This document shows, piece by piece, positions 1 to 14,837 of a DNA stretch of 32,000 nucleotides. The position numbers and the translations under genes are program-made. Every line of letters starts with the position of its first letter. Positions within the stretch are counted from its first letter, which is position 1. The DNA comes from Thiothrix winogradskyi (GTDB lineage: Bacteria; Pseudomonadota; Gammaproteobacteria; Thiotrichales; Thiotrichaceae), in assembly GCF_021650935.1 (NCBI RefSeq), contig NZ_CP091244.1:3305230-3337229 (forward strand), in the 5' to 3' direction. The notes below the pieces were generated by a model. It was not told where the DNA came from. It was given only the letters and a program-made list of their open reading frames with translations, and did not search any database.

Positions 1-26
1 TCCTGGGTGGTGGCGATCAGTAAAAG

Positions 27-52
27 GTGTACTACAAAAAGAAAGGGGTAAC
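27..52 (+). repeat. Copy 1 of TACTACAAAAA-core repeat (candidate recombination site)
   Basis: Sequence is GTGTACTACAAAAAGAAagggGTAAC. It is identical to 4218-4243 over the first 17 bp and the last 5 bp. Confidence 0.6.
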
Positions 53-69
53 TTTTTACAGTTACCCCT
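31..69 (-). terminator. Rho-independent terminator ending the minus-strand recombinase operon
   Basis: Perfect 9-bp stem AGGGGTAAC (44-52) / GTTACCCCT (61-69) with an 8-nt loop. On the minus strand it is followed by TTCTTTTTGT. Confidence 0.6.
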
Positions 70-94
70 CTTCTGATCCCAACAACGTTAGTGG

Positions 95-295
95 TTAATG
101 AAAGGTTTTATCCCGTGGCTGTGGAATGGGCGGGTATTGCTGCCAACCCTCCGCCTCTGGGTAATCGTTCAGTGCTGGAATCCGCCAGAGTGTGCCGTCA
201 TTGCACAGCGCAACGAGCCACATCCCATCCTCTGCATCAGAGGTCACGCTGATTTGCACCGGCACACGGTTGTTAGGCTTAGATGTCATTGCCAA
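95..295 (-). CDS. Hypothetical small protein (66 aa), last gene of the recombinase operon
   Basis: The ORF overlaps the 3' end of the recombinase gene by 17 nt and is followed by the terminator hairpin. No family was recognised. Confidence 0.45.
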   Translation of the reverse strand: MAMTSKPNNRVPVQISVTSDAEDGMWLVALCNDGTLWRIPALNDYPEAEGWQQYPPIPQPRDKTFH

Positions 296-1415
296 GCCCC
301 CCCATCATGTTGCGCATTTTGCCCATATTGACTTGGATATAACCCATTGTCGTGGATAGGTTGGTATGCCCTAGCAACCGCTGCACCTCCTTGATACCCT
401 CTATGCCGCCATCACCGTTAGCCAGTTTGGTAGCAAACGCATGGCGGAAACGGTGGGGACTGATTTCTACGCCCGCCAGCTTGCCAATGCGTTTGAAACC
501 GCCGGAAACGTGGTCTACGGTCATCGTTTTGGCGATGTTGCCGTCAGTGCGGTAGCGGTTGTTAAACAGAGTCACATTAAACACCTGGTCATCCAGATAG
601 ATGCTACGGCGCAATGCCTCTTCGGTTTTGCGTTGCAGTTCGGAAAATCCCGCTATTAACTGGTCGGGTAGGGGAATGTCCCAGCCGCGTTTGGTTTTGG
701 AGTGCGCCGCTTGCAGGTGGATGATGCCGCTTTTGAGGTGAATATCGCCCCACGTCAACCCAACAACCTGACGACGACGCATACCGGTGTAATACAGCGT
801 CCGAATCAGTACTTTCCAAAACCATGCAGGAAATACAGCGAGGTTGCCGGGGCTGTCCAGCCATTCCATTACCGTTTTTATCGAACTGTCGGTGATGGCC
901 TTGGGCGCGTTATCGTAGATGACGATGGTTTTAATGCCGTCCATGATGGGCTTCAGATCAAACCCCCACGGTTTGGCAGCATTGAGCAGCGCCCGGAAAT
1001 GGCGCACCCAGATGTTATAGGTATTCGCCGCGTTTTTGCGTACATCCAGAATTTCCGTTTTCACCTGCAAAAAATGCTCACGCTCAATCAGGTGGATATA
1101 CCAAACACCCGTCACCTCGACAAAAAGCTTGATAGCAGCTTCCAGCATAACAACGTAGGAAGTGGAGGGGCGGCGCTCCGCCATGAACAGATCCAGCAGG
1201 CTATACAGGGTTAAATCTGTGTGCTGGCGGTCGGTGTATCGAGTGACAGAGAATTGACCATAATTACTGCTGGCGACCACAGGAACGGAAATGCCACCCT
1301 CACAGCCAATGGCTGCCACTGGCTGAACCTTGTTTAGCCGCCCCTTCTTCCGCAGGATTTTGGGCATTTGCCGGGATGTTGGCTGTTCTGGGGTGTCGAT
1401 GATTTCAAAAATCAT
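279..1415 (-). CDS. Tyrosine recombinase / phage-type integrase (378 aa)
   Basis: The catalytic signature is visible: GMRRRQ (Arg), HRFRHAF (His-x-x-Arg), LLGHTNLSTTMGYI (His and the nucleophilic Tyr). The start overlaps the upstream ORF in an ATGA arrangement. Confidence 0.9.
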   Translation of the reverse strand: MIFEIIDTPEQPTSRQMPKILRKKGRLNKVQPVAAIGCEGGISVPVVASSNYGQFSVTRYTDRQHTDLTLYSLLDLFMAERRPSTSYVVMLEAAIKLFVEVTGVWYIHLIEREHFLQVKTEILDVRKNAANTYNIWVRHFRALLNAAKPWGFDLKPIMDGIKTIVIYDNAPKAITDSSIKTVMEWLDSPGNLAVFPAWFWKVLIRTLYYTGMRRRQVVGLTWGDIHLKSGIIHLQAAHSKTKRGWDIPLPDQLIAGFSELQRKTEEALRRSIYLDDQVFNVTLFNNRYRTDGNIAKTMTVDHVSGGFKRIGKLAGVEISPHRFRHAFATKLANGDGGIEGIKEVQRLLGHTNLSTTMGYIQVNMGKMRNMMGGLGNDI

Positions 1416-1717
1416 GCTGCACCCCCGTTAGTCCGCGAACTGAACAGCCCGTCAAGATCGTCGTGGATTCGGTCGATAGCACAGGAAAGTTCCTGCACCT
1501 GACGGTGTACCAGTGACACGGAGGAAACGACTTTGCTCCAATCAGCCAGCCGGGTACTGGTTTCATCCAGCATCCATGTGACGGATTTCAGTTCCTCGAT
1601 TTGCTGGCAAACATCCTGTAAGCGCCCAAATGCGGCGCGGTGTTTGGCGGTGATGTTGGTTAGATTGTCTGAATTTGGGCGCACGGACGGGCGCAAGTTG
1701 TTATCATTCGGTTTCAT
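1412..1717 (-). CDS. Hypothetical helical protein (101 aa), translationally coupled to the recombinase
   Basis: The ORF has a 4-nt overlap with the recombinase start. No family was recognised. Confidence 0.5.
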   Translation of the reverse strand: MKPNDNNLRPSVRPNSDNLTNITAKHRAAFGRLQDVCQQIEELKSVTWMLDETSTRLADWSKVVSSVSLVHRQVQELSCAIDRIHDDLDGLFSSRTNGGAA

Positions 1718-1812
1718 TTACTGGTATCTCCAAAGTAGTCAGTAAGTGGGCTGTTTGGTGTTCCACCACCTTGCAACCCTTAAGCGCCCCGCATTGTTGG
1801 GGCGTTTTCGTT

Positions 1813-2463
1813 TCAGTGAATTGTATTCAGGGTGATGTTGCTACCTATGCGGGTTATCACGCCTCTCTGTTCAAGTTCCGCGATGGTTTCCCGCATTACT
1901 TGCCCAATGGCTGATTTAGGGCGTATTAATGCCCACGGTTTAGCCTTGCTCTTGGTTTGTTGAAAATGCCGCGCTGTCATTTCTTTATGCTTCATCAGGT
2001 ACTTGATTACATCCGCCGCACGTTCATCTTGTGGGGGGAGTTGTGCGGGTGTGCAATGGGAAAACGCACGTTCAAGACGGCTTGCCACTTCCTCAGCATT
2101 CGCCATGCTTGCCCGAAGGCTTGCTACGGCATTAATTGCCGCTGATGCAAGGGAATACTGTTGCTCTTCGAGTTCCTGCCAGCGGTCGACAATCCGCATG
2201 AGAAGGGAAGTGTTTAACCGTGCTGATACTGCGATGGATTGGCGCTTGTTCAGTTGGTAGGTTTTTGTGGTCTGTCCCTTGTCGTTGTATACGATGTCCA
2301 AAATGGACACCGTGCCAAAATCAGGACTTTCAGCCATTGCCGCTACCTTCAACATTGCCTTGTCATGGCGAACGTCTAACAGATCGGTGATTTCTTTCAG
2401 GGTCATGGTTTGGGCGTTTCCGCCAGTTGTGGTTAGTGCAAAGCTCATTACTGGTGTCTCCAT
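1813..2463 (-). CDS. Rha-family phage regulatory protein (antirepressor-like)
   Basis: The N-terminus MTLKEITDLLDVRHDKAMLKV...YNDKGQTTKTYQLNKRQSIAVSARLNTSLLMRIVDRWQELE matches the Phage_pRha pattern. The start is either ATG 2463 or ATG 2448; the latter has a GGAG 9 nt upstream. Confidence 0.8.
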   Translation of the reverse strand: METPVMSFALTTTGGNAQTMTLKEITDLLDVRHDKAMLKVAAMAESPDFGTVSILDIVYNDKGQTTKTYQLNKRQSIAVSARLNTSLLMRIVDRWQELEEQQYSLASAAINAVASLRASMANAEEVASRLERAFSHCTPAQLPPQDERAADVIKYLMKHKEMTARHFQQTKSKAKPWALIRPKSAIGQVMRETIAELEQRGVITRIGSNITLNTIH

Positions 2464-2479
2464 TGGGTTGGGTTATGGC

Positions 2480-2650
2480 TTACGCCGCCTGCTTCTGTTC
2501 TGTTACCTCCTCTATCTCCTTAATCTTTTTGATAAAACGATTAATTTGCGCATTAAAGCTGCGATCTTCTGCTTTAGCTTTCTCCTTAACCCACTGTTTT
2601 AACTCTGGCTCAAGCCGTAGCGGATATGATTTCTGTTGCATTTCTTTCAT
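2480..2650 (-). CDS. Arc-type ribbon-helix-helix repressor (56 aa; below the ORF-track cutoff)
   Basis: Manual translation gives MKEMQQKSYPLRLEPELKQWVKEKAKAEDRSFNAQINRFIKKIKEIEEVTEQKQAA. The SYPLRLEPE...RS.N..I pattern is Arc/Mnt-like. The gene lies 16 nt upstream of the Rha gene. Confidence 0.7.
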   Translation of the reverse strand: MKEMQQKSYPLRLEPELKQWVKEKAKAEDRSFNAQINRFIKKIKEIEEVTEQKQAA

Positions 2651-2677
2651 TATGCTTCCCCTTCAAAGAACTTAAAA

Positions 2678-2735
2678 GAATCTTAGATTCAGAATCTTAA
2701 AGTGTCAACTAAATTCTTTGATTCAATAAGAATCT
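2678..2735. promoter_or_regulatory. Operator cluster between divergent Arc-type genes
   Basis: GAATCT/AGATTC half-sites form overlapping palindromes: GAATCT-T-AGATTC (2678-2690) and AGATTC-A-GAATCT (2685-2697). Further half-sites are GATTC (2720-2724) and GAATCT (2730-2735). Confidence 0.55.
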
Positions 2736-2753
2736 TCTTAGAGAATAAATACG

Positions 2754-3353
2754 ATGAAAAAAGAATATCAGCAGTTGCCCTCTTATCCCTTGCGCCTTGA
2801 ACCTGAAACACGCGCAAAGCTCGAAGCCATAGCCAAGGCTAACGGTCGGTCATTGCACGCAGAAATTTCTATGCGGCTTGAGGACTCTCTACTTCCCCGA
2901 CCCACAGCCGAGTGGAAACAGATTCTCGATCCTGCCGTGTATTCCCTGTTGGAAGGTGAGTCGTCCAGATGGAGTCAAACGTTTGAAGAGGCTCTTAACT
3001 ACAGGTTACAGCTAGCTTTCGACAAGCGGCTTACTGGGTTACTTCTTGACGACCTATCTTCAGAAGCAGAAGCTTTGAAGATGTCAGAGGGCAGGACTGT
3101 TTCAATAGGAGCTATATTGGATAGGCGGGTGCGGGATGGCTACCTGAAAATGAAACAAACTGCTTACCCTTTCTCAGACCCAGAAAACCTACAAGAGCAG
3201 AAATATGACGGGTCTAAGTTTGATAGCTATGCTGATGAATTTATGAAAGAACTCGTAGCGCAAACTGTCCGTGACCAACTTGCCAAAGCAGGTATCGTTG
3301 TTCCTGGCGGGCAATCTAGCCAAAACGAGAGCGATCACACAAACGAAGGATAA
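2754..3353 (+). CDS. Arc-type RHH N-terminal domain protein with ~150-aa C-terminal extension (199 aa)
   Basis: The N-terminus SYPLRLEPETRAKLEAIAKANGRSLHAEISMRLEDSL fits the Arc family (L/F-x-L-R-x-P ... NGRS.N.EI). The C-terminal part was not recognised. Confidence 0.75.
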   Translation: MKKEYQQLPSYPLRLEPETRAKLEAIAKANGRSLHAEISMRLEDSLLPRPTAEWKQILDPAVYSLLEGESSRWSQTFEEALNYRLQLAFDKRLTGLLLDDLSSEAEALKMSEGRTVSIGAILDRRVRDGYLKMKQTAYPFSDPENLQEQKYDGSKFDSYADEFMKELVAQTVRDQLAKAGIVVPGGQSSQNESDHTNEG

Positions 3354-3364
3354 GTTTTATAACC

Positions 3365-3556
3365 ATGACAGAGCCTAAACAACCCGTCGATTTGCCAGAA
3401 GACGATATTTCTGATGAGCAGTTAGAAGCAATCACTCAACGAATGATCAAAGCGGTGATGGAACGTAAAGCTATTGCTCAACGTAAGTTGAACGACGATC
3501 TTACCGCCGCCATGTTGCAAGCTGAAGCCTACTTTCACCACACGAAAGCAAGCTGA
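3365..3556 (+). CDS. Small acidic protein (63 aa), candidate antitoxin of the downstream kinase
   Basis: It sits 8 nt upstream of the zeta-like gene. The N-terminus is acidic (DLPEDDISDEQLE) and the protein looks helical. No family was recognised. Confidence 0.5.
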   Translation: MTEPKQPVDLPEDDISDEQLEAITQRMIKAVMERKAIAQRKLNDDLTAAMLQAEAYFHHTKAS

Positions 3557-3564
3557 GGTCTAGC

Positions 3565-4170
3565 ATGAAACCAAGGTTGATCATCATTGCCGGGCCGAAT
3601 GGCTCAGGTAAAACGTCGGTAACAAGTGAAATTCTGCTGGATAAATGGGCGCAAGGCTGTGATTACATCAACCCCGACAATATCGCCCGTGATGTCTTTG
3701 GTGACTGGAACGACCGCGAAACGGTGCTGAAAGCTGCTCAGTATGCAGAGGACTGGCGTGAACGCTGCTTGCGTGAAGGGCGTGACTTCATTTTTGAAAC
3801 CGTACTTTCTGTGCCTGATAAGGTGGAATTCATCCAACGCGCCAAAGATGCGGGGTTTTTTGTGCGTTTCTTCTTCATTGCGACGGATACGCCATACATC
3901 AATGTGGCACGTATCGCCCAGCGGGTTGTGGAAGGCGGGCATACCGTACCAGCAGATAAGATTGTTGCCCGCTATTTCCGCTCCATTGCCAATGGGGTGG
4001 AGGCTGCAAGGTTAGCTGACCGTGGATATTTCTTCGATAACTCAGTTGATGATCACTCCCCAAGTCTATTGCTCCGTACTGTGGATGGCATGGTTGCAAA
4101 ACAGTATCCAGCGTTGCAACTTCACTCTTGGGGGCAACAAGTGGCTACTAGATTAGCAACCACGGTTTAA
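3565..4170 (+). CDS. Zeta-toxin-like P-loop kinase (201 aa)
   Basis: It has a Walker A motif IIAGPNGSGKTS, followed by YINPDNI, FETVLS and GGHTVP blocks. These are typical of short zeta-toxin/COG4185-type ATPases. A GAGG ribosome-binding site lies 7 nt upstream. Confidence 0.8.
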   Translation: MKPRLIIIAGPNGSGKTSVTSEILLDKWAQGCDYINPDNIARDVFGDWNDRETVLKAAQYAEDWRERCLREGRDFIFETVLSVPDKVEFIQRAKDAGFFVRFFFIATDTPYINVARIAQRVVEGGHTVPADKIVARYFRSIANGVEAARLADRGYFFDNSVDDHSPSLLLRTVDGMVAKQYPALQLHSWGQQVATRLATTV

Positions 4171-4217
4171 CATTGGGTAAAACCACACCTTCTGATATTC
4201 ACGCCCCTCAATAGTTT

Positions 4218-4243
4218 GTGTACTACAAAAAGAAGATCGTAAC
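4218..4243 (+). repeat. Copy 2 of TACTACAAAAA-core repeat
   Basis: Sequence is GTGTACTACAAAAAGAAgatcGTAAC. It is a direct repeat of 27-52. Confidence 0.6.
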
Positions 4244-4247
4244 CGCC

Positions 4248-4327
4248 CCTCCATAGCACCGCACAAAACCTTCAGAGTACCTCCAAGCAATTCAACATAC
4301 CTCCAACGTGCCTCCATACACCCTCCA
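4248..4327. repeat. Iteron array A: five CCTCCA(A/T) repeats
   Basis: CCTCCA starts at 4248, 4280, 4300, 4311 and 4322; the last three are spaced 11 bp apart. The outer copies share CCCTCCATAGCA. Confidence 0.6.
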
Positions 4328-4364
4328 TAGCAAAAAAGGCGGGTTTTGGGGGTAAAAACGGTTT

Positions 4365-4467
4365 GGCAGGAAAACGGCAGGCTTTTGGCAGGCGTTTTCC
4401 CAGTTCTGACGAGTGATTTTGCCACCCCTCAACCCCGTGGCAGGATTTTGGCAGAGCGAAAAGCAGG
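4365..4467. repeat. Iteron array B: (TTT)GGCAGG repeats in two 11-bp-phased clusters
   Basis: GGCAG(G/A) starts at 4365, 4376 and 4387, and at 4439 and 4450, with a degenerate copy at 4462. Spacing within each cluster is 11 bp. Confidence 0.6.
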
Positions 4468-4485
4468 CAAAACAAAGGCAATAAT

Positions 4486-4533
4486 TGTATAATGTAGTAA
4501 ATAGTAGTATTATACAAAATACTACATTATACA
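4486..4533. promoter_or_regulatory. Promoter/operator of the kfrA-like gene: perfect 14-bp inverted repeat
   Basis: TGTATAATGTAGTA (4486-4499) and TACTACATTATACA (4520-4533) are exact reverse complements. The left arm contains TATAAT. The element ends 12 nt before the ATG. Confidence 0.55.
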
Positions 4534-4545
4534 GAGGCGTTACAC

Positions 4546-5451
4546 ATGGCGATTACCAAAGACCAGATTTTCCAAGCCGCTGACCAGCTCACCGCAGCCG
4601 GTGAATCCGCGACAATGGCAGCAGTACGCAAACTGCTAGGCGGTGGCAGCTACACCACCATCAACGAGGGTTTGAAGGAGTGGAAAGCCAAACAACACAC
4701 CACCAACACCCTGATACGTGAACCTGCTCCACCAGCGGTAGCCACCCGCCTAGAGGAATTGGGCGCTGATATATGGGCGGTAGCCTTGGAACTTGCCAAT
4801 ACACGCCTCACCACTGAACGTGAGGCACTGGAAGCCACCCGTATTCAGGTCGAAACCGCACAACAGGAAGCCACCGAATTAGCCGACCAACTGAGCGTAG
4901 AGCTGGAAACCCTGCAATCGAACTGCAAGCAAGTCGTGAGCGATCTACAGACCGCCAATGCCGCGCTTGAACAGCTACGGCAGGAAAACGCCACTCTTAC
5001 CCGCCAACTGGCAACCACTGAAGCACGGGCAGAAGAAACCACCAAACGTGCCGACGATCTAAAAGCGGAACTACAACACGCTCATGCTGAAAACAAAGCG
5101 CAGCGGGAACGCCACGCCAACGAAACCCAAGCCCTGCAAGACCAGCTCAACACCACTGAAAAAGCCCTACAAACCGAAGTAGCCAACGGGGTACGTCTGA
5201 CACTGGAACTCACCCATGCGCAAACCCAAGCGCAAGCGGCACAGCAGCAGCAACAAGCCCTACAGGAACGTAGTGCCACCGAGATTCAACGGATGAACGA
5301 GCGCCTTACCCAAGCGCAAGCGGAACGGGAGCAAGCTCTACAAGCCGCGAGGGCTACCCGCGAAGATGCGGCGGGATTGCGGGGTGAATTGGAAGCGTTG
5401 CGGGTACAAAATGCGGCATTACTTGGAGCACTTAAACAGACAAGTCATTGA
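4546..5451 (+). CDS. kfrA: KfrA-like DNA-binding coiled-coil protein (301 aa)
   Basis: The N-terminus ITKDQIFQAADQLTAAGESATMAAVRKLLGGGSYTTINEGLKEWKAKQ matches the KfrA_N pattern. The rest is a long Q/A/E-rich coiled coil, as in plasmid KfrA. Confidence 0.75.
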   Translation: MAITKDQIFQAADQLTAAGESATMAAVRKLLGGGSYTTINEGLKEWKAKQHTTNTLIREPAPPAVATRLEELGADIWAVALELANTRLTTEREALEATRIQVETAQQEATELADQLSVELETLQSNCKQVVSDLQTANAALEQLRQENATLTRQLATTEARAEETTKRADDLKAELQHAHAENKAQRERHANETQALQDQLNTTEKALQTEVANGVRLTLELTHAQTQAQAAQQQQQALQERSATEIQRMNERLTQAQAEREQALQAARATREDAAGLRGELEALRVQNAALLGALKQTSH

Positions 5452-5595
5452 AATTCCTCACGATCTTGAAAGGCGTAGGGGAAAAGCAAGAACACTCAAC
5501 ATAAACATAAACATAAGTCATTGAAATTCCTCACGATCTTGAAAGGCGCAGGGGAAAGACAAAGACAATCAACATTATCATAAGCCATTGATTTT
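5443..5595. repeat. Tandem 73-bp direct repeat overlapping the kfrA-like stop codon
   Basis: AAGTCATTGAAATTCCTCACGATCTTGAAAGGCG(T/C)AGGGGAAA begins at 5443 and again at 5516. A partial third copy (TAAGCCATTGATTTT) is at about 5581. An (ACATAA)3 microsatellite lies within unit 1. Confidence 0.7.
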
Positions 5596-5604
5596 ACTTG
5601 CGAC

Positions 5605-5625
5605 CTTTTTTTGTAGTAAAACTTT
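5605..5625 (-). repeat. Copy 3 of TACTACAAAAA-core repeat (inverted relative to copies 1 and 2)
   Basis: CTTTTTTTGTAGTAAAACTTT is 21/21 identical to 6295-6315. Its reverse complement contains TACTACAAAAAAAG. Confidence 0.6.
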
Positions 5626-5882
5626 TTACCGACCATCACCACCACGCGGGCGGGTAGTCTGTATGGTGGTGGTGCGGGTCTTGGGATTGGCTGGTGAAGG
5701 CGGTACGGGCTGGCGCTGTTCCTGCAATTTTTTCAGTTCTGCCATGTTGATGACTGAGGTCACAAGTAAAATCAATAGTTTATGTTGATTTGATGAAAAA
5801 TTCACGTATATTGTGATTGACATAATCAGTCAAATTGATGTATTAATAATCAAATAATTTTATTCATCATTGAGGAGGCACT

Positions 5883-6248
5883 ATGCACCCTGTTATTAAA
5901 AAAACATTCGGTGGATTGACACGTCAATATTTTCTGAGACAGTTATTTTTCGGTGGACTTATCGGTGCTGCTGCAACTGCTTTTGTAGTTTCTGTAGGAA
6001 GAATCAATCCGCTGATTCCTGTTTTATTGATTATATTAGCAACATTTCTCTATCCATACTCTAGATTCGTCTATGAAACCATCATTGATTTCATTTTAGG
6101 GAAAAATATTATTTTTTTTAACGCTGTTCTGTATTTCTCTACCAAAGCGGTCACTATGTTGTTATGTTGGGCGTTTTCATGGGCAATTGCTCCTTTAGGA
6201 CTCGTTTATCTATATTTCCATAACAATAGAATTGAACAGACTCAATAA
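5883..6248 (+). CDS. Small integral membrane protein (121 aa, about 3 TM), possible pore-forming-colicin immunity-like protein
   Basis: It has a strong GAGGAGG ribosome-binding site and three hydrophobic segments. The gene is visibly AT-rich compared with its neighbours. The LYPYSRFVYETIIDF segment recalls colicin Ia/Ib immunity proteins, but that comparison is from memory only. Confidence 0.65.
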   Translation: MHPVIKKTFGGLTRQYFLRQLFFGGLIGAAATAFVVSVGRINPLIPVLLIILATFLYPYSRFVYETIIDFILGKNIIFFNAVLYFSTKAVTMLLCWAFSWAIAPLGLVYLYFHNNRIEQTQ

Positions 6249-6270
6249 CACATCAAAATATGGCAGGATA

Positions 6271-6302
6271 GAAGGGTGCTAAAAATGCCCCCTTCTTTTT
6301 TG
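6271..6302 (+). terminator. Rho-independent terminator of the membrane-protein cassette
   Basis: Stem GAAGGGTGC (6271-6279) / GCCCCCTTC (6287-6295) has one mismatch and is followed by T7 (6296-6302). Confidence 0.6.
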
Positions 6303-6315
6303 TAGTAAAACTTTA
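6295..6315 (-). repeat. Copy 4 of TACTACAAAAA-core repeat
   Basis: CTTTTTTTGTAGTAAAACTTT is identical to 5605-5625. Its reverse complement TACTACAAAAAAAGAAGGGGG resembles copy 1 (TACTACAAAAAGAAAGGGG). Confidence 0.6.
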
Positions 6316-6329
6316 TTCTGCTTCATTTA

Positions 6330-6671
6330 TTATAACCGCATGACTTTTTGCTTTAACAAGTCTTTTAACGCCGTTAACTCATTTACTAATTTTGGAATGC
6401 TATAGTTAAAGGCTTCATTCTTTTTTGATTCAGTGGATAGCCATAATTTTAATAAGCCGACTACCCGCCCCATATCCCCATTGATCTTAGCCATTTCGAT
6501 AATGGCTTGTGCATCCAACGTGGATTTAGGGGTGTAGCTGAGTGCCATCCGGCGCATGAATTCTGGCACGGACAAGGAGCAGGTTGCTGCTAGGGCGGCA
6601 ATCTCTTCCCGTTCCTCTGGTGTCACGCGCACCATGACCAATACTGTTTTCTTTCTGGTTTCTGAACCCAT
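6330..6671 (-). CDS. MobC-family / TraJ-position relaxosome accessory protein (113 aa)
   Basis: VRVTPEEREEIAALAATCSLSVPEFMRRMAL is the characteristic MobC (RHH-like) N-terminal motif. The gene diverges from traK across the candidate oriT. Confidence 0.75.
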   Translation of the reverse strand: MGSETRKKTVLVMVRVTPEEREEIAALAATCSLSVPEFMRRMALSYTPKSTLDAQAIIEMAKINGDMGRVVGLLKLWLSTESKKNEAFNYSIPKLVNELTALKDLLKQKVMRL

Positions 6672-6746
6672 TGCCGCTCCCTGCCTGTGGCGCTCACTCC
6701 CGCTAGGGCAAGATCGTTGAGCCGCAGGCGAATAAGTTACCTAGTA

Positions 6747-6795
6747 TTTGCTGTGCCGTCACTTGTGGCGGTATAGCAAATACACATCTTGCCAT
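6747..6795 (+). other. Candidate IncP-type oriT core (inverted repeat plus nic-like site)
   Basis: An imperfect inverted repeat TTTGCTGTGCCG...CGGTATAGCAAA (6747-6780, 10/12) is followed 5 nt later by CATCTTGC (6785-6792). The IncP/MOBP nic consensus is YATCCTG|Y, so there is one mismatch. The position between the traJ-like and traK genes matches RP4. Confidence 0.4.
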
Positions 6796-6901
6796 CTCTG
6801 TATGGCAGTAATATTTCGTATAGATAACGGATATTTTTCGGAATTTGAAATGGTTTCCGATGTTCTGGAAAAATCTAGCATCAGTACAGTTAGTTACATT
6901 A

Positions 6902-7891
6902 ACCTGAGTTCGGGATAAGGTAAGGCGCAGCCTTTCATGGGAGAATGTGAGTAACCACACACAACATTGACCCCACCAAAGGCTGCTACTGAGATGCTAA
7001 CACGGTTATTCTGTGCCATTGACGATTTTTGTCAGGACTTTCATCCCGAATGGAACAAAACGTTATTGACCCCGAAAGGCGGGCATCGTCGTCGCCACAG
7101 TGGTCTTGGCGATAGTGAAATCATGACGATTTTGGTGCATTACCACCAAGTGGGGTATCGTACTTTCAAGTGGTATTATGAGCGTCATGTCAAAGTATTT
7201 CTTAAGGGTCATTTCCCGCAACTCCCTAGTTATCAACGTTTTATTGAGTTAATGCCGCGTGTTCTTTTGCCACTAACCCTGTTTATGCAGCAACGCTGTG
7301 AAACGGGGCGAGGTATTGCCTTCATAGACTCTACCCCTTGAAAGTCTGTGAAAATTTGCGTATTCCACGTCATCACACCTTTCGCAAAGACGCAGGCGGG
7401 GTAAATCGTCAACAGGCTGGTTTTATGGGTTCAAACTTCATTTGGTCGTGGATGACTGCGGCAATATTTTATCGTTTGCCATTACTTCGGGTAATACCGA
7501 TGACCGTAAGCCCGTTCCCACGTTGCTGAAAAAAGTGGTCGGCAAAGTCTTTGGTGATCGTGGCTACATTTCCAAGGCATTGACAGAATCGTTGGCAGAG
7601 CAAGGGGTTGAATGGATTACCTCGCTGAAGAAAAACATGAAACCCGTGGCGCGTGACACGTTCGATACACTGATGTTGCGTAAACGGAGCATCATCGAAA
7701 CCATCAATGATCAGTTGAAAAATATTTCACAAATTGAGCATTCACGCCACCGTTCACTCACTAACTATATGATTAACATCATTGCTGGCTTGGTGTCATA
7801 TGCCTATCAAGATAAAAAACCAGCACTGGATTTAAAAACATCAGCATTGGTTGTGATCTAAATTGAGGGATGGCTTATCCCGAACTCAGGT
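6902..7891 (+). mobile_element. IS982-family insertion sequence (990 bp)
   Basis: The terminal inverted repeats are perfect over 18 bp: ACCTGAGTTCGGGATAAG (6902-6919) and its reverse complement (7874-7891). A 7-bp target-site duplication TACATTA flanks the element (6895-6901 and 7892-7898). Confidence 0.9.
6994..7861 (+). pseudogene. IS982-family DDE transposase interrupted by two frameshifts
   Basis: Three ORF pieces join into one IS982-like protein: (1) MLTRLFCAIDDFC...FIDSTP; (2) LKVCENLRIPRHHTFRKDAG; (3) RGKSSTGWFYGFKLHLVVDDCGN...DRGY...IETINDQLK. The frame changes at about 7338 (CCCCTTG) and about 7397 (GGCGGGG), each equivalent to one missing base. Confidence 0.8.
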
Positions 7892-8056
7892 TACATTACT
7901 AATCCAGTTCGGAACACTACAAAACAGAATAAACCCATTTAAAACCAAATTTTCCGTTTATTATCCAGTACCTTCCATAAATTCTATTGATGACTTACAA
8001 AGTAAGTAGTAGGCTAGATTCCATCAAACCCATGAATACAAAAAAAGAGGCATCCA

Positions 8057-9310: not shown

Positions 9311-9736
9311 ATGCAAATTGATAAAAAAGCAATGATTTCTGATTTAGCAAGCAAACATGGCATTATGTTGACAGAAAAAGACCCGGTTTTTTCCATATTG
9401 GCTATTCATGACATTATAATAAATCAGTATCAAAACATTATTTTTCAAACATTGGATGGGTTGCAGGTTAATTTGGATGAGATTGCAGAACGGCAGCAGC
9501 AGGCTACGCGCTTGGCGGGTGAGCGCTTGGCAATCCAAACGCTGAACGCCTTGAAGGTAGAACACGGGGGGATTCAGCAGCGCTTTGAGGATATGTTGGT
9601 TAAGGAACGGCAGTCTTATCTAATTGCGCTGGATGATAAGGTTCAGTTACTCCAAAAATGGGGCTGGGTGAATCTTGGTGCTGCGATGTTGAGTGTTGCG
9701 AGTTTGTTGGTGACGGTGGTGGTGTTGGCTGGTTGA
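9311..9736 (+). CDS. traM: TraM-position protein (141 aa, C-terminal TM helix)
   Basis: The assignment rests on its size and on its position immediately after traL (3-nt gap). It has a coiled-coil region and a C-terminal hydrophobic helix. No diagnostic motif was recognised. Confidence 0.5.
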   Translation: MQIDKKAMISDLASKHGIMLTEKDPVFSILAIHDIIINQYQNIIFQTLDGLQVNLDEIAERQQQATRLAGERLAIQTLNALKVEHGGIQQRFEDMLVKERQSYLIALDDKVQLLQKWGWVNLGAAMLSVASLLVTVVVLAG

Positions 9737-9828
9737 ACTTAACCCATCGTAAATTTGAAATTGATAAAAGTGGCGATCATCTCATTAATTTTCCAGATTC
9801 CCGCATTTTTAAATAAACAAGGATTTTT

Positions 9829-10614
9829 ATGAATACCTCAAAAATATTACCTATTTACTTTTCAGTAGCTTTATCGTTAAGCGCTTTGCCATTACATTCC
9901 TATGCTGCTGGTGGTGGAGTTAGTGCCTTGACTGGTGCTAAAGAATGGACTCAGTTGGCGAATAACGCCGAGTTGATTGCTATTTATGGGCAGGAAGCGA
10001 AAAACTTGCTGGAGTCCATCAAGCAAACAGAAACCATGTTAACAAATTTAAAGACATTGCCGGATTTTGCAAAAACTGGCTTGAAAGCGGATGTCATGAA
10101 ATTACAGGCTATTGTCCAAGCTGGCAACGCTTTAAGTTATGCAGCAGCAAATATTGAAGGCGATTTTAATACCGCTTTTAAAGGGGCATTTGGTTATGAC
10201 GCTCCGATGACTCGTCAGGAATGGGTTGATCAGCACCAATCCCTTACTATGACTACACAAGATACAGTGCTTGCATCCCTGAAAGCGGCGAACTTGCAGA
10301 ATTCAATGTTTGATAGTGAGGCGGCATTGCTTGAAGGTCTTGAGGGGCAACTCTCTAGTGCCGAAGGTACAAACGAAATTTTGCAAGCGGCTGGCGGCAT
10401 TGCGGCGCAACAGGTGGCGAGCCTGAACAAGATGCGCCAGTTGACTGCTAGTAATATGCAAATGCAGGCGGCAAAAATTGCGGCGGACGAGGATCGGCAG
10501 GCGGCAGCACTCGCTGAAGAGGAGCGTTTTAAAGGGCGGACGGGAGCGGGGAATAAAATCACTGTTGATCCTAATAATGCTGAACGGGTAGTACCAACGT
10601 TCCAATTCAAATAA
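9829..10614 (+). CDS. trbJ: TrbJ/VirB5-type conjugative transfer protein (261 aa)
   Basis: It has a signal peptide (…LHSYAAGG). The motif GAKEWTQLANNAELIAIYGQEAKNLLESIKQTETMLTNL is typical of P-type TrbJ. It directly precedes trbL. Confidence 0.75.
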   Translation: MNTSKILPIYFSVALSLSALPLHSYAAGGGVSALTGAKEWTQLANNAELIAIYGQEAKNLLESIKQTETMLTNLKTLPDFAKTGLKADVMKLQAIVQAGNALSYAAANIEGDFNTAFKGAFGYDAPMTRQEWVDQHQSLTMTTQDTVLASLKAANLQNSMFDSEAALLEGLEGQLSSAEGTNEILQAAGGIAAQQVASLNKMRQLTASNMQMQAAKIAADEDRQAAALAEEERFKGRTGAGNKITVDPNNAERVVPTFQFK

Positions 10615-10634
10615 AACCCACATAGGCTCTAACA

Positions 10635-12938
10635 ATGACAATGAAAATAAAAAATATCGTGATTTTGTTGGTATTGACCAGCAGCATATGGGTACTGCCC
10701 TCAATTGGTTTTGCTGCTGATCTTGTGGCGACAGTCAATGACCTACAAAACAGTTTTTATGACGCTGTTTCAAATTGGGTAGGGCCTTTGCAACAGGTGG
10801 CGGGGTGGTTGTTGGTAACGTTAGCGACCATCTCATTTATTTGGCAGGCTAGTTTTATGCTGCTGCGGGGTACTGACATTCAGGAATTAACGGTTGAACT
10901 GGTTCGTATGATTCTATTTGCGGGCTTTTTCTATTGGCTGATCCAGAATGCGCCCGACCTTACCAGCAGATTGATCAATGGTTGGATTTGGCTGGCTGGA
11001 GAGGCAGGAGGTTCTTCTGTATCACCCAACATTAGCCAAATACTGGCGCGGGGTGTCGATCTCGCGGGCACAATGTACGAGGTCAGTTCGGGATTCACGG
11101 TCATAGTGGCGGGTATCTTGGGTGTTATTATTGTTGTTTTATACGTGCTGATCGCTGCCAAGGCATTTTTGGTTACTCTGGAAATGTATACCGTCACGGC
11201 TGCTGGAGTCATTCTGTTGGGGTTTGGCGGTAATCAATGGACTGGGGATTACGCAAAACGTTACATCACCTACACAATGGCAACGGGAATGAAACTGTTT
11301 GTCATGTATTTGATTGTAGCGACCGGCGAGAATTTCATTAATTCGTGGGCAGCAGATAGCAAACCTGAAACATTTAACGATATGTTATCGGTGGTTGGTG
11401 TCGTGTTATTGATGTTGGTTCTGGTGTGGCAACTGCCAGATACAGTACAGGGATTGTTGTCAGGCGCAAGCCTTGGCAAAACAGAGCAGCAAGGTTCTGC
11501 TGCTGTTATGAGTTCATTCGGACAGACTGGTTCAGCCGCCGCATCGGTGGCAAGCGGTTCTGTTGGAGCTGAATTAGCAATCCGCGAGGCGCTGAAAAAC
11601 TCTGAGGGAATGCCGGGGAGCAGTTCTGGCTACCAATACAAAGCCGCCAACGCAATGAGCAATCTAGCCAATGCGGGTGCTGAGGTGCTGGGTAATCGGA
11701 TTATGGGTGACTTCAACGCTTCCAGCGGCGGCATGATGGCTTCAATGGCGCAACACATGCGCCAGCAACGTACCGGCGGTAGTGGTTTGTACGGCGGTAC
11801 GTCGTCGGGTAATGACCATATTGGTGGGTCTGCGACGGGTGGCAGTTTTGGGGCGGGTGATCCTACTACAAAACAAGGAACAGGGCCGGAAGAGGCTGAA
11901 AATGCTTCCCATGATTTTGGTGGTGATGGTGACGCAGGTGGTTCTGAGGCTGGGGCGGGTGCTGCTTCTTGGGATACGTCTAAGGTTGGCGGTAAAGAGC
12001 ATGAGTTTGGGGCGGATGATGGCGGTTCGTGGTCTTGGGATGCGTCCGGGGTAGCGGCTGCGGGTGGTGCGGGTGAGTCTGATAACCCGGCAACTCGCTA
12101 CCGTTCGCCTGCGGTGGATTTAACGCGGGGCGGTGTGCCGAGTTTTGGTGGTGGTGCTGAAAGTTCTACTGCAAAAAGTGAATCTGGGGTAGCGCCTACG
12201 TCTGCTGCTAGTGGTATTGCTGGCGGTATGGTGGGTAGTGGCAATATGGCTTCTGGTGTTGCGGCTTCTTCGCCTTCGGCTGCGTCTAGTGCTGATGAAC
12301 AAGTCTCTACTGCAAAAGGAATGACGGGTGCGGATCAAAGCGCAGGGACTTCCAATTCTTCAGGCGGCAATTCATCCAATGCTATTGGGTCAATGGTTGG
12401 GGCTGACAACATGACTTCTTCTATGGGTTCTTCCATTGGTGCTGATGCACAAGGTTCTACTACAAAAGGAATCATGGAGGTGGCGGCTGTTTCGCCTTCG
12501 GCTTCTTCATCGGTTGCGTCTAGTGCTGATGCACAAGTTTCTACTGCAAAAAGTGAATCGGTTTCTGTGGGGAATACGTCATCTGGCTCTGGTGCTGCTC
12601 CTGTTAGTTCGGCGGGGTATTTGCGTTCTGAGAGTGGGGCATCTGGCGGTTCCATGAATCAAGTACCTACTGTTAGTGCTGCTCAAAGTGTTACAGCAAG
12701 CCCTGATTTGGCGGGGACTGTGGTTGGTTCCAGCGTGGTTCAGGCTGCTACTGTTGGTGGGTTGGGTGAGCCTTCAGTGGTTTCAAGTACCATTGGTGGT
12801 AGCATGGTGGGTGCTGACAACATGGCTTCTGGTGTTGATCAAAGTTCCCTACAAACGGATGCCGAAACTTCGGACGATCCTGCAACGCGCTACCGTTCGC
12901 CTGCCGTCGATTTGACTAAGAGCAAGACGAACAGTTAG
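10635..12938 (+). CDS. trbL: TrbL/VirB6-type polytopic membrane protein with ~480-aa repetitive G/S/A-rich tail (767 aa)
   Basis: The N-terminal ~290 aa have a signal sequence and multiple TM helices with the TrbL-like block ELVRMILFAGFFYWLIQNAPDL. The C-terminal part is low-complexity with internal repeats. Confidence 0.8.
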   Translation: MTMKIKNIVILLVLTSSIWVLPSIGFAADLVATVNDLQNSFYDAVSNWVGPLQQVAGWLLVTLATISFIWQASFMLLRGTDIQELTVELVRMILFAGFFYWLIQNAPDLTSRLINGWIWLAGEAGGSSVSPNISQILARGVDLAGTMYEVSSGFTVIVAGILGVIIVVLYVLIAAKAFLVTLEMYTVTAAGVILLGFGGNQWTGDYAKRYITYTMATGMKLFVMYLIVATGENFINSWAADSKPETFNDMLSVVGVVLLMLVLVWQLPDTVQGLLSGASLGKTEQQGSAAVMSSFGQTGSAAASVASGSVGAELAIREALKNSEGMPGSSSGYQYKAANAMSNLANAGAEVLGNRIMGDFNASSGGMMASMAQHMRQQRTGGSGLYGGTSSGNDHIGGSATGGSFGAGDPTTKQGTGPEEAENASHDFGGDGDAGGSEAGAGAASWDTSKVGGKEHEFGADDGGSWSWDASGVAAAGGAGESDNPATRYRSPAVDLTRGGVPSFGGGAESSTAKSESGVAPTSAASGIAGGMVGSGNMASGVAASSPSAASSADEQVSTAKGMTGADQSAGTSNSSGGNSSNAIGSMVGADNMTSSMGSSIGADAQGSTTKGIMEVAAVSPSASSSVASSADAQVSTAKSESVSVGNTSSGSGAAPVSSAGYLRSESGASGGSMNQVPTVSAAQSVTASPDLAGTVVGSSVVQAATVGGLGEPSVVSSTIGGSMVGADNMASGVDQSSLQTDAETSDDPATRYRSPAVDLTKSKTNS

Positions 12939-13039: not shown

Positions 13040-13217
13040 CACTTCCTGCACGCGCAAAACTGACAAAATTAAAATAATCATGCACTTAATTATTCTGGCG
13101 TGTAGGAAATGCAGGAAGTTTGCAGGAAGTTTTTCCTACACGTTTAAAATTAATAACTTAGCATGTAACAATCAATGACTTACAAGCGTTTTTTGCCGTG
13201 TAGGAAATGCAGGAAGT
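13040..13217. repeat. Array of TGCAGGAAGT-type 11-bp units with an embedded 44-nt hairpin
   Basis: CGTGTAGGAAA (13099-13109) and TTTCCTACACG (13132-13142) are perfect inverted repeats around two tandem TGCAGGAAGTT units. CGTGTAGGAAATGCAGGAAGT recurs at 13197-13217. A reverse-orientation copy, ACTTCCTGCA, is at 13041-13050. Confidence 0.65.
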
Positions 13218-13267
13218 GTAGAGGGATGGAGGGGGGAGAGGGAGAAATCAGAGGGGATAATTTGAGG

Positions 13268-13329: not shown

Positions 13330-14604
13330 TTACTTATTGTTTTTAATTTCTGGATTGCGCAAGCCGTCGAGATAATCCGCCCACGCTTGCAGCATTTCAC
13401 GCCGTTGCCGGATAGCGTCTGGACTATCCGCCCGATTGTATGCGCCCCTGACTGTTCCATCAGTGTGTGCAAGCTGTTGCTCTATCAAGTCATCATCCCA
13501 CAGCCGCTTACCCATTGGGTCGGTCATGCGATTAAGCAGCGTTGATGCCATGCCCCGGAATCCGTGCGGGGTCATGGTGTCGTTGTCATAGCCCATCGTG
13601 CGTAGTGCTGCCCTGATGCCATTGTCTGAGAGTGGCTTGCTTGCGCCGCGCTCACTAGGGAACACGTAGCGGAATCGCCCGGAATACGGTTGTATCTCCC
13701 GGAATACTTCCACGGCTTGACGGGGTAGCGGTACGGTGTGGGTTGATCGGTTCTCTTGCTTAATGTGTGTGGGTGCTTTCATCTTGGCAATCGGGATACG
13801 CCAGACAGCCGCGTCTAGGTCTATGTCTGCCCATTCCGCCGCCCGAACATTGCCGGGGCGTAACATCACCAAAGGGGACAATTTCAAGGCGCATCTAACG
13901 ACAAACGTACCTTGATAGCCGTCTATATCACGCAACAGTTGCCCGACCTGCACCGGGTCGGTAATCGCGGCATAGTGCTTCTTACTGCGGGGTTTCAGAA
14001 TCACTGAGGTGTCAATATCCGCCGCCGGGTTACGTTCTGCCAGTTCCAGCGTGACCGCGTAACGGTAGACCTGCTGAATGTATTGCTTAACCCGCCGTGC
14101 AGCATCACCAGCGCCGCGTTCTTCCACGCGCATAATCACCCTGATTATATTGGTAGGAGTAATCGCGTTTATGTTCAGGCTACCCATGAAGGGGAATACA
14201 TCCCGCTCTAAGTAGCTGATCGTGCGGGTTGTGTGGCTTTCCGACCACTGCGGTTTCATCCTCAAAAACCATTCACGCGCTATGGATTCAAAGCTATGCG
14301 CTTCAATGTCGGCTTGTGATGCCTTCACCGACTTTCGATGCTCTGAGGGGTCAACATCACGCGCCAGCAATGCCCGTGCCTCTCGGTGGCGTTCTCGTGC
14401 CTCTGCCAGCTTGATTTCAGGGTACGTGCCGATCACTAGCGTATTGCGCTTGCCGGTAGCAGGTCGGGTGTAATCGTAACGCCAGCCTTTCGCCTCTTTG
14501 CTCACCCAAAGGTATAAACCGCCGCCATCGGTGTACTTGGCTGTCTTGCCGTCTGGTTTCGGTTTGGCGTTGCGTACTGCGGTATCGGTCAAGCGGGTTT
14601 TCAC
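13330..14604 (-). CDS. int: P4-type (DUF4102 arm-binding domain) tyrosine integrase
   Basis: The N-terminus LTDTAVRNAKPKPDGKTAKYTDGGGLYLWVSKEAKGWRYDY is typical of P4-family integrases. The C-terminus has HGFRGMAST ... LAHTDGTVRGAYNR (His-x-x-Arg, His, Tyr). The likely start is GTG 14604, with a GGAG 8 nt upstream. The ORF track extends to a TTG at 14628. Confidence 0.9.
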   Translation of the reverse strand: MKTRLTDTAVRNAKPKPDGKTAKYTDGGGLYLWVSKEAKGWRYDYTRPATGKRNTLVIGTYPEIKLAEARERHREARALLARDVDPSEHRKSVKASQADIEAHSFESIAREWFLRMKPQWSESHTTRTISYLERDVFPFMGSLNINAITPTNIIRVIMRVEERGAGDAARRVKQYIQQVYRYAVTLELAERNPAADIDTSVILKPRSKKHYAAITDPVQVGQLLRDIDGYQGTFVVRCALKLSPLVMLRPGNVRAAEWADIDLDAAVWRIPIAKMKAPTHIKQENRSTHTVPLPRQAVEVFREIQPYSGRFRYVFPSERGASKPLSDNGIRAALRTMGYDNDTMTPHGFRGMASTLLNRMTDPMGKRLWDDDLIEQQLAHTDGTVRGAYNRADSPDAIRQRREMLQAWADYLDGLRNPEIKNNK

Positions 14605-14760
14605 GGTATCGACTCCATTGGGATGCAAAATGCCGTACAGAATACCGTAAAAAATGTGGGCTGGTATGGTTCTAGTGGTACTGCATGGGAAAGTAAGGGC
14701 AGTGAATGCCGTTACTTTTCATGAATTTAAGCACCGTATGGCACTCATGGAACTAATGAT

Positions 14761-14837
14761 TGGTCGGGACGATAGGATTTGAACCTACGACCCCCACACC
14801 CCCAGTGTGGTGCGCTACCAGGCTGCGCTACGCCCCG
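14761..14837 (-). tRNA. tRNA-Pro (anticodon GGG)
   Basis: The reverse complement folds as a cloverleaf. The acceptor stem is CGGGGCG/CGTCCCG, the anticodon stem CCACA/TGTGG, the anticodon loop CTGGGGG, and the T-arm GTAGG-TTCAAAT-CCTAT. The 3' CCA is encoded. Confidence 0.92.

Follow-up and report, generated by a model that had tools for sequence, protein, structure and literature searches.

A short conserved box at gene ends and module joints of a mosaic Thiothrix winogradskyi island and of related mobile elements

Results

The sequence analysed here (the window) is a stretch of 32,000 nucleotides (nt) from the Thiothrix winogradskyi contig NZ_CP091244.1. From position 1 to ~14.7 kb it consists of an island that lies beside tRNA-Pro (14761-14837) and carries the gene for a P4-type integrase (13330-14628); to the right of tRNA-Pro follow merR, ihfA, pheT, pheS, rplT, infC and thrS. 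The island at tRNA-Pro is a decayed mosaic. Its gene content includes genes for Rha-like and Arc/TraY-type regulators, a zeta-toxin gene, kfrA and a nikA/traJ-like gene, and its conjugation part comprises the nikA/traJ-like gene, an insertion sequence (IS) in the origin-of-transfer (oriT) region, traK/L/M-like genes, trbJ and trbL; several of the window proteins are recorded as UJS23517-UJS23526. Four short repeats near the left end of the island (Table 1) had been interpreted in an earlier reading of the letters alone (the sequence-only reading) as sites of an adjacent tyrosine recombinase. We find that the repeats are real and non-random: they are copies of one box that is strictly conserved in a small group of Thiothrix mobile elements, where it stands at the ends of genes and at the joints of modules.

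The box in the window

The repeats share the 11-mer TACTACAAAAA, which is present in four exact copies, all inside 6.3 kb, while ~0.015 copies of an exact 11-mer are expected on both strands of the 32-kb window. In an alignment of 13 copies from the window and its relatives, conservation is confined to TACTACAAAAA and to a bias in the adjoining sequence, which is G/T-rich on the 5' side and purine-rich on the 3' side. The core of the box, TACTACAAAAA(A), is 11-12 nt long, asymmetric and essentially invariant; at least eight flank contexts that are unrelated to each other contain it in strictly the same form.

Copies 1 and 2 are direct repeats as proposed earlier: GTGTACTACAAAAAGAA is identical in 17/17 positions, four mismatching bases follow, and GTAAC is again shared. 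Copies 3 and 4 do have the orientation opposite to that of copies 1 and 2, but the 21/21 identity ascribed to them fails in register. Copy 3 reads C+T7+GTAGTAAAACTTT and copy 4 reads C+T6+GTAGTAAAACTTTA and, because the T-runs differ in length (T7 versus T6), the two share 19/19 rather than 21/21 positions, the longest common string being the 19-nt TTTTTTGTAGTAAAACTTT. The stretch at 7916-7929 that had been taken for a degenerate copy has two mismatches; with 13 such matches in the window it is indistinguishable from chance. The box matches are all-or-none in that the exact copies stand apart from this chance-level two-mismatch background.

With up to one mismatch to TACTACAAAAA the window contains nine matches, while 0.45 are expected and none of 100 shuffles reached nine. 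The five one-mismatch matches lie at 9648-12552, outside the region of the copies; four are in the TrbL gene (10635-12938), three of these in coding repeats, and we regard all five as unrelated to the box. The part of this gene that encodes the C-terminal part of TrbL (window 12018-12916) consists of degenerate coding repeats with a period of ~84-150 nt, and the Ser-Thr-Ala/Thr-Lys codons of these repeats give rise to most of the one-mismatch matches.

Table 1. Copies of the box and features of the island around them
Feature	Position	Strand	Remarks
Relaxase-like gene, 3' end	1..23	+	Runs off the window; ends …LGGGDQ*; convergent with recombinase operon
Copy 1	27..52, core 30-40	+	Exact match; L055/L056 ortholog keeps both flanks
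GC hairpin, T-tail = copy 1	42..71	-	Terminator scan; fold -20 kcal/mol, z = -2.7; substituted but kept in L055
Three-gene recombinase module	95..1717	-	Pfam, NCBIfam; also in L005, L049 and L055 with other flanks
64-amino-acid (aa) DUF551 protein	95-289	-	DUF551 is the name in the source annotation
378-aa Xer-like tyrosine recombinase	279-1415	-	Pfam, NCBIfam
101-aa protein	1412-1717	-	Recombinase module
Copy 2	4218..4243, core 4221-4231	+	Exact match; 50 nt past zeta-toxin stop; no hairpin
Two iteron-like blocks	4244..4481	+	CCTCCA type, then TGGCAGG type; direct reading; homologous blocks in L049 and L058
kfrA module	4482..5606	+	Operator, kfrA (4546-5451), three 24-nt repeats; KfrA_N Pfam match
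Copy 3	5605..5625, core 5608-5618	-	Exact match; 7 nt past relaxase-remnant stop; no hairpin
Relaxase-gene 3' remnant	5626..5750	-	…TTRPRGGDGR*; C-terminus identical to L055 MobA
121-aa membrane-protein gene	5883..6248	+	AT-rich (GC 0.33-0.36); between copies 3 and 4
Terminator hairpin of membrane-protein gene, T-tail = copy 4	6270..6296	+	Fold -19.6 kcal/mol, z = -3.4
Copy 4	6295..6315, core 6297-6307	-	Exact match; 22 nt past nikA stop
nikA/traJ-like relaxosome gene	6330..6671	-	Pfam NikA-like

The box in related elements

In ~52 kb of related elements, all of them represented by partial contigs, the box occurs in 11 further exact copies, with ~0.025 expected. Two types of replicon carry it, i.e. 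conjugative elements with NikA and TraI that resemble plasmids of incompatibility group P (IncP), and small plasmid-like contigs with MobA and Rep3. Among the former, L048 (a metagenome-assembled genome of T. lacustris) has three exact copies within an intact IncP-like Tra1-type region in the order traM-L-K-like, nikA, traI, the type IV coupling protein (T4CP) gene, traF, topoisomerase, traD-like and a giant traC-like gene; L050 has two exact copies in a synteny like that of L048. Three exact copies and one with a single mismatch (TACTTCAAAAAA at 7099) are present in L049, in which the recombinase module is ~97% identical to that in the window. The NikA proteins of L048, L049 and L050 are 89%, 90% and 69% identical, respectively, to that of the window. 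The small contigs L055/L056 encode Rep3, a 106-aa protein, the recombinase, the 64-aa protein, a convergent MobA relaxase and an FtsK/T4CP-like protein, and L055 carries one copy. Finally, two exact copies are present in L058, a contig with a zeta gene. In the fetched parts compared, no gene was common to all box-bearing contigs.

The copies are intergenic in all cases but one. In the spacer between the traD-like and traC-like genes, the box stands at the orthologous position in L048 and L050 as an island of identity, CTTTTTTGTAGTA, in sequence that is otherwise unalignable.

Beyond these elements the box was not found. The 9-mer TACTACAAA is missing both from the chromosomal part of the window and from the chromosome stretches L007 and L008 (~21 kb each, with many gene ends), and the chromosomal part of the window also lacks each of the first three 8-mers of TACTACAAA. 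In total, ~38 kb of Thiothrix chromosome lacks the box. It is likewise absent from four Thiothrix plasmids (104 kb) and from 40 kb of pTfr153, ~144 kb of plasmid sequence in all, as well as from the more distant NikA relatives L051-L054. A 19-mer searched among 185,579 reference genomes gave 35 single matches in AT-rich Bacteroidota, Clostridia and others, none of them in Thiothrix and none with common flanks; these matches are due to chance. The 26-nt pattern of copies 1 and 2 and a NikA profile each gave 0 matches in metagenome contigs, and a degenerate 17-mer gave only single chance matches in viral contigs. PLSDB contained no close relative of the relaxases of these elements (TraI at most 36% identity; MobA in the N-terminal domain only), no Rfam family overlaps any copy of the box, and a literature search with two box strings returned unrelated primers and sequences only and nothing relevant on Thiothrix conjugative elements. 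The box is, therefore, specific to a narrow set of mobile replicons and is not a host-wide repeat; a genome-wide repeat of the host such as a repetitive extragenic palindromic (REP) element, an uptake sequence or a Chi-like site was rejected since the sampled chromosomal DNA has no copies.

Origin of the copies and homology breakpoints

The alignment of window 22-1694 with L055 (94% identity) covers recombinase module, hairpin and box and extends as far as the stop codon of the convergent MobA gene. Because operon, hairpin, box and MobA gene are contiguous in L055/L056, copy 1 is an internal feature of a plasmid and not a junction, contrary to the proposal that copies 1 and 2 are the attL and attR attachment sites of a 4.2-kb element. 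In L055 the relaxase end at 1..23 corresponds to that of a MobA_MobL gene (…RPRGGDGR*); with the relaxase end and box of L058, window 6-44 can be aligned at 85%. On the side of copy 3, window 5608-5655 corresponds to L055 2830-2877 at 94% identity and window 5608-5695 to L058 at 97%, and the adjoining relaxase remnant is 42% identical over 26 aa to the tail of L048 TraI. Copies 1 and 3 are therefore both the 3' flank of a relaxase gene, with the order relaxase stop, 6-7 nt, box, and are inverted relative to each other.

The other two copies have different companions. Copy 2 moves together with the zeta module and has the same sequence in L057-L059; its ortholog in L049, the one-mismatch copy at 7099, keeps merely ~12 nt of the left and 8 nt of the right flank. 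The ortholog of copy 4 lies at L049 6277 just past nikA: the flank on the nikA side is common to both and divergence sets in directly after the A-run. In addition, ~50 nt around copy 4 match the traI-traG spacer of L048 and are reversed relative to nikA. Each window copy arrived with a different backbone fragment. The pieces of the island come from at least three replicons, i.e. (i) a Rep3/MobA plasmid with the Xer-like recombinase module, (ii) a zeta/iteron plasmid, and (iii) a relaxase-less conjugative element at tRNA-Pro.

At copies 2, 3 and 4, the homology with L049 and L058 is interrupted, either at the copy itself or no more than ~12 nt away from it. The sole recent insertion/deletion (indel) that can be read at base resolution is that of the kfrA module, which is present in the window and absent in L058. 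In L058 the sequence up to window position 4481 is joined straight to that from 5608 onward, and the flanks are 96-99% identical. The right edge of the module abuts the T-run of copy 3 and has the box; the left joint, GGCAA/TAATTG, is without one. The kfrA operator/promoter is identical in 53/53 nt to that of the Thiothrix fructosivorans plasmid pTfr21, and from this identity together with the absence of the module in the near-identical L058 it follows that kfrA behaves as a discrete module exchanged among Thiothrix replicons. The order of the iteron-like blocks beside copy 2 is circularly permuted in L049 (6592-6832) compared with L058 (1340-1853) or the window (4244-4481), and no rep gene adjoins the blocks at 4244-4481; the permutation suggests a captured plasmid origin, opened at different points.

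Three direct repeats of ~24 nt, CATTGA(A/T)(A/T)TT.C…GA(T/C)C, and one inverted copy lie in window 5442-5606 and 5757-5789. The inverted copy pairs with the third of the direct ones in a 33-nt inverted repeat (85% complementary) around copy 3 and the relaxase remnant, and a related copy is found in the iteron region of L058 in reverse orientation.

Hairpins and orientation

The sequence-only reading had noted that copies 1 and 4 coincide with the T-tracts of terminator hairpins and had offered a REP-type element as a further possibility; the former is borne out, the latter is not supported by the sampled chromosomal DNA. A hairpin abuts the T-run in three of 13 folded copies, i.e. copy 1, copy 4 (GC stem at 6274-6290 on the plus strand) and L050 18664, and the three stems are mutually unrelated. 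The ortholog of copy 1 at L055 2840, which is outside the folded set, retains the hairpin by sequence. No hairpin was found at copies 2 and 3 (z = -0.7 and -0.5) or at eight copies in relatives. The hairpin at 42..71, the predicted intrinsic terminator of the recombinase operon, is also a 12-8-13 palindrome (GAAAGGGGTAAC / TTTTTACA / GTTACCCCTCTTC).

In the two intact conjugative elements, L048 and L050, each of the five copies has TTTTTTGTAGTA on the strand that is sense for its flanking genes; in L050 the gene direction differs to the left and right of oriT, and the box changes strand with it. The rearranged contigs have the box between gene ends that converge.

Discussion

The properties of the box invite comparison with the dispersed global operators of the IncP-1 plasmids RK2/RP4, which comprise the KorB OB sites, the KorA OA sites and the TrbA sites; those of KorB and KorA are palindromes bound by dimers. 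Like these operators, the box is short, strictly conserved, present in multiple copies, intergenic, in some cases far from promoters, and kept between related elements, and the elements themselves are syntenic with the IncP Tra1 region (traM-L-K, oriT, traJ-I-G-F-topo-traD-traC-like). As expected of a dispersed operator, the box is present in several conserved intergenic copies, and orthologous positions are kept in diverged relatives. Unlike the KorB and KorA sites, the box is asymmetric, is also present on small MobA/Rep3 plasmids, and coincides with rearrangement joints.

Combining these data, we tentatively suggest that the box may be an orientation-dependent cis-acting signal of the element backbone at the boundaries of transcription units, and that rearrangement joints cluster beside it. 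In this model, the sense strand would read stop codon and then, within ~15-60 nt, (C-rich) TTTTTT GTAGTA. Where a GC hairpin precedes the box, the T-run would serve as the U-tract of an ordinary intrinsic terminator, and the invariant GTAGTA would be the docking site of a putative sequence-specific factor that marks or controls the boundary. Joints would accumulate next to the box because gene ends tolerate joints and because the box is identical in co-resident replicons, and the four copies in the island would reflect a patchwork of at least three backbones in which every piece has its own copy. Beyond the conservation, distribution, positions, orientation and ancestry of each copy, which are described above, it is the boundary function and the trans-acting factor that we infer.

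Several observations weigh against a boundary signal. The orientation rule is based on five copies in two elements, and the distance from the box to downstream start codons is irregular, ranging from 33 to ~425 nt. With 10 of 13 copies lacking a hairpin, termination alone is not the function; the box supplies the U-tract in some places and is not simply a terminator tail. The one copy that is not intergenic (L048 4923-4933, box 4933) lies inside the T4CP gene, where it codes for Phe-Phe-Val-Val of the first transmembrane helix; the L050 ortholog uses other codons at this position. Operator sites are usually less strict than the perfect identity over 11-12 nt seen here. Finally, breakpoints recur 0-12 nt from the end of the A-run, and for this a joining site is a more direct account than selection plus chance.

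Alternatively, the box could be a genuine joining or recombination site of some enzyme, not necessarily the 378-aa recombinase, that joins at the 3' end of the A-run. Its partners would be other copies or non-specific DNA, so that modules are exchanged among co-resident replicons. We consider this reading rather unlikely, although the relatives provide several points in its favor. The TACTAC-side flank and the core are kept and the sequence switches right after the A-run at copy 3 compared with L058 and at copy 4 compared with L049 6277, and between L055 and L058 the switch occurs at +4 past the A-run. One junction point has been used twice, in that the TGGCAGG block was joined to the box in L058 and the kfrA module was later taken in at this point in the window. 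The permuted iteron blocks lie by the position of copy 2, and the at least eight unrelated flank contexts of an identical core would also be accounted for. On the other hand, the breakpoints are not at one bond but at +0, +4, +8 and +12 on one side and from -3 to beyond -40 on the other; the kfrA indel has no second box, and the box has no dyad symmetry. If the box were an insertion site, it would be difficult to account for the copy that is conserved within the tra operon of diverged elements; the canonical nic regions of oriT are elsewhere, and no candidate enzyme is common to all box-bearing contigs. The more specific proposal that TACTACAAAAA(A) is the recognition sequence of a one-sided joining system, which would cut at the end of the A-run and join to another box or to unrelated DNA, we regard as unlikely.

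The joining alternative has parallels in known systems. As in the pdif modules of Acinetobacter plasmids and at integron attC sites, a short site occurs in both orientations at the boundaries of exchangeable modules, and relatives that carry the box differ in what lies between or beside the sites. Unlike pdif and attC, the box has neither the 11-6-11 dyad nor R''/L''/L'/R' elements, an integron integrase is lacking, the kfrA indel is not two-sited, and the breakpoints are not fixed. As at the boundaries set by HUH enzymes (oriIS of ISCR/IS91 elements and relaxase nic sites), a short conserved stretch comes after a relaxase gene and unrelated DNA begins beyond it, and the conserved side of the relaxase-flank copies includes the enzyme gene. 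Unlike such boundaries, the canonical nic regions lie elsewhere and the box is also found far from any relaxase gene.

A functionless box is doubtful. In this scenario, a bidirectional terminator made up of A-tract, hairpin and T-tract would be ancestral, and the box would be its tail, which spread with gene ends and in most places lost the hairpin. Such a tail would fit the copies that are T-tails of hairpins (copies 1 and 4 and L050 18664, with L055 2840 by sequence), the copies just past stop codons, and the purine/G-rich flank beyond the A-run (ARARRnGG), which resembles the 5' half of a GC stem. As in intrinsic bidirectional terminators, copies 1 and 4, L055 2840 and L050 18664 provide GC hairpins between gene ends with a U-tract or with an A-tract upstream. 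In contrast to terminators, most copies are hairpin-free, the hairpins are unrelated, and the invariant GTAGTA lies beyond the T-run and is not needed for a terminator. That the hairpin sequences vary while TACTAC is invariant is the reverse of what terminator decay predicts. Moreover, the box is conserved in an otherwise unalignable spacer of diverged elements, and the sampled chromosomal DNA, which spans many gene ends, is boxless.

By comparison, the proposal of the sequence-only reading, in which the 279-1415 recombinase acts on all four copies, copies 1/2 being attL/attR, copies 3/4 bounding a cassette and copies 2/3 being the ends of a shufflon-like inversion, is very improbable, and it is largely refuted by the contiguity in L055 and by the kfrA indel. 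The direct and inverted geometry of the copies is as it had been described, the recombinase operon is immediately followed by the box in the window as well as in L055, and recombinase and box copies are also together in L049. However, in the partial contigs compared, box and recombinase do not always occur together. The box is present with no such recombinase seen in 12.7 kb of L048 and 20.3 kb of L050, the intact conjugative relatives, and the recombinase is present without the box in L005 (99% identical recombinase), where homology to the window ends at ~112, ~60 nt from copy 1, and in ten distant recombinase-relative loci in viral contigs. The L049 module breaks off at window 254 and 1659 and has no box there. 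The segment between copies 3 and 4, supposedly a 0.69-kb cassette with one gene, is a composite of relaxase remnant and membrane-protein gene. Copies 2 and 3 are inverted relative to each other, but no inversion of the segment between them is seen among the window, L049 and L058, in all of which the blocks have the same strand and the permuted order is the sole change.

The box also lacks the architecture that such an enzyme would be expected to use. The 378-aa recombinase is Xer-like in the catalytic domain only and falls under every curated cut-off, and a scan of reference-genome contigs found no relative; in the 13 aligned copies there is no two-arm dyad of the kind used by Xer-, Cre- or integron-type tyrosine recombinases. 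Insertion of cassettes at the box by way of two flanking sites was rejected since the kfrA module has the box at its right edge only. An integron was likewise rejected, the best integron-integrase model scoring 44.3 against a cut-off of 265 and the box having no GTTRRRY. In L005 (Logan SRR21942386), a perfect 22-bp palindrome, AGATTATTTGTACAAATAATCT, follows the 64-aa gene at 1690-1712, in the place taken by hairpin and box in the window and L055; this palindrome or the 12-8-13 palindrome of the window could be the real site of the recombinase.

Equally improbable is a role of the box as a solitary half-site bound by KfrA or by a KfrA-like protein. The GTAGTA/TACTAC hexamers pointed out earlier in the kfrA operator (4486-4533) are indeed there, both operator arms (TGTATAATGTAGTA and TACTACATTATACA) contain the 7-mer TGTAGTA, and the operator of L001 holds TTTGTAGTAAA, an 11-nt match to copies 3 and 4; yet the A/T-run that is invariant in the box is not in the arms, a dimeric operator protein would require two half-sites, three Thiothrix plasmids with a homologous kfrA (~80% nt identity) and the same operator have no box elsewhere, and L058 has boxes and no kfrA module at that locus.

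Other identities were rejected as follows: a relaxase nic site, since the canonical oriT-like regions lie elsewhere, i.e. in L055 at 4262-4310 upstream of mobA (a MOBQ-type inverted repeat GTTTCTCAGCTACGCCGAGAAAC, then ACCGCGCCCTG, with nic CGCGCC/CTG) and in the window at ~6780-6800 (ACATCTTGCC; IncP-type ACATCTTG/CC beside the Rfam traJ-II match at 6697-6794); a sigma-70 promoter (no usable -10/-35 at constant distance); a site for IHF, Fis, CRP or Ter or a hix half-site (poor matches by inspection); a transposon end (no partner ends, inner flanks unrelated); pairs of a small RNA from a 3' untranslated region and its target (hairpin U-tract on the wrong side for a TACTAC-sense transcript); a programmed frameshift at A6G (copies outside open reading frames (ORFs)); and arm-type sites of the P4-type integrase (copies 7-14 kb from the att end).

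Should the box prove to be a boundary or operator signal, as we tentatively favor, it would provide a handle on the organisation and insulation of transfer genes in IncP-like elements of sulfur-oxidising Thiothrix, and it would serve as a simple sequence tag for members of this family and their satellite plasmids in metagenomes. If a joining site were true, it would represent a new way of shuffling plasmid modules; in the one-sided version, Thiothrix conjugative elements and the small plasmids they mobilise would swap replication, stability, kfrA and accessory modules at gene ends, in a plasmid counterpart of integron or pdif exchange with an asymmetric, dyad-less site. In both cases, the window exemplifies an island made from pieces of at least three replicons and not a cassette array of the adjacent recombinase.

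Other features of the island

The 121-aa membrane protein between copies 3 and 4 has the UniRef name SxtJ, and homologs with 44-50% identity belong to the backbone of PromA plasmids and of plasmids from Xanthomonas. Among plasmid homologs, the closest (49%) is carried as an integron gene cassette by pVgang of Vibrio gangliei, which shows that the gene is mobile, yet not that it moves by way of the box.

No relaxase gene follows nikA in the window, while traI follows nikA in L048, L050 and L051. Matches to the Rfam family traJ-II (RF01760), at or just over the gathering score, lie upstream of and overlap the nikA/traJ-like gene in three elements (window 6697-6794(-), L048 2258-2355 and L050 9812-9909). 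The IS at 6900-7893 separates nikA from the traK-like gene in the oriT region; it has perfect 20-bp terminal inverted repeats (6900-6919 and 7874-7893) and a DDE_Tnp_1_3 transposase split over two ORFs (6967-7341 and 7442-7861).

Two further repeat families were noted. The promoter region at 2651-2753, between the divergent genes for a 56-aa Arc-like protein and a 199-aa protein with a TraY/Arc domain, contains several AGAATCTT repeats, which are likely the own operators of these genes and unrelated to the box. At 13093-13224, between the P4-type integrase gene and trbL, two 34-nt direct repeats (85% identical) are accompanied by a nearby inverted repeat; they may be integrase-related sites or the remnant of a joint.

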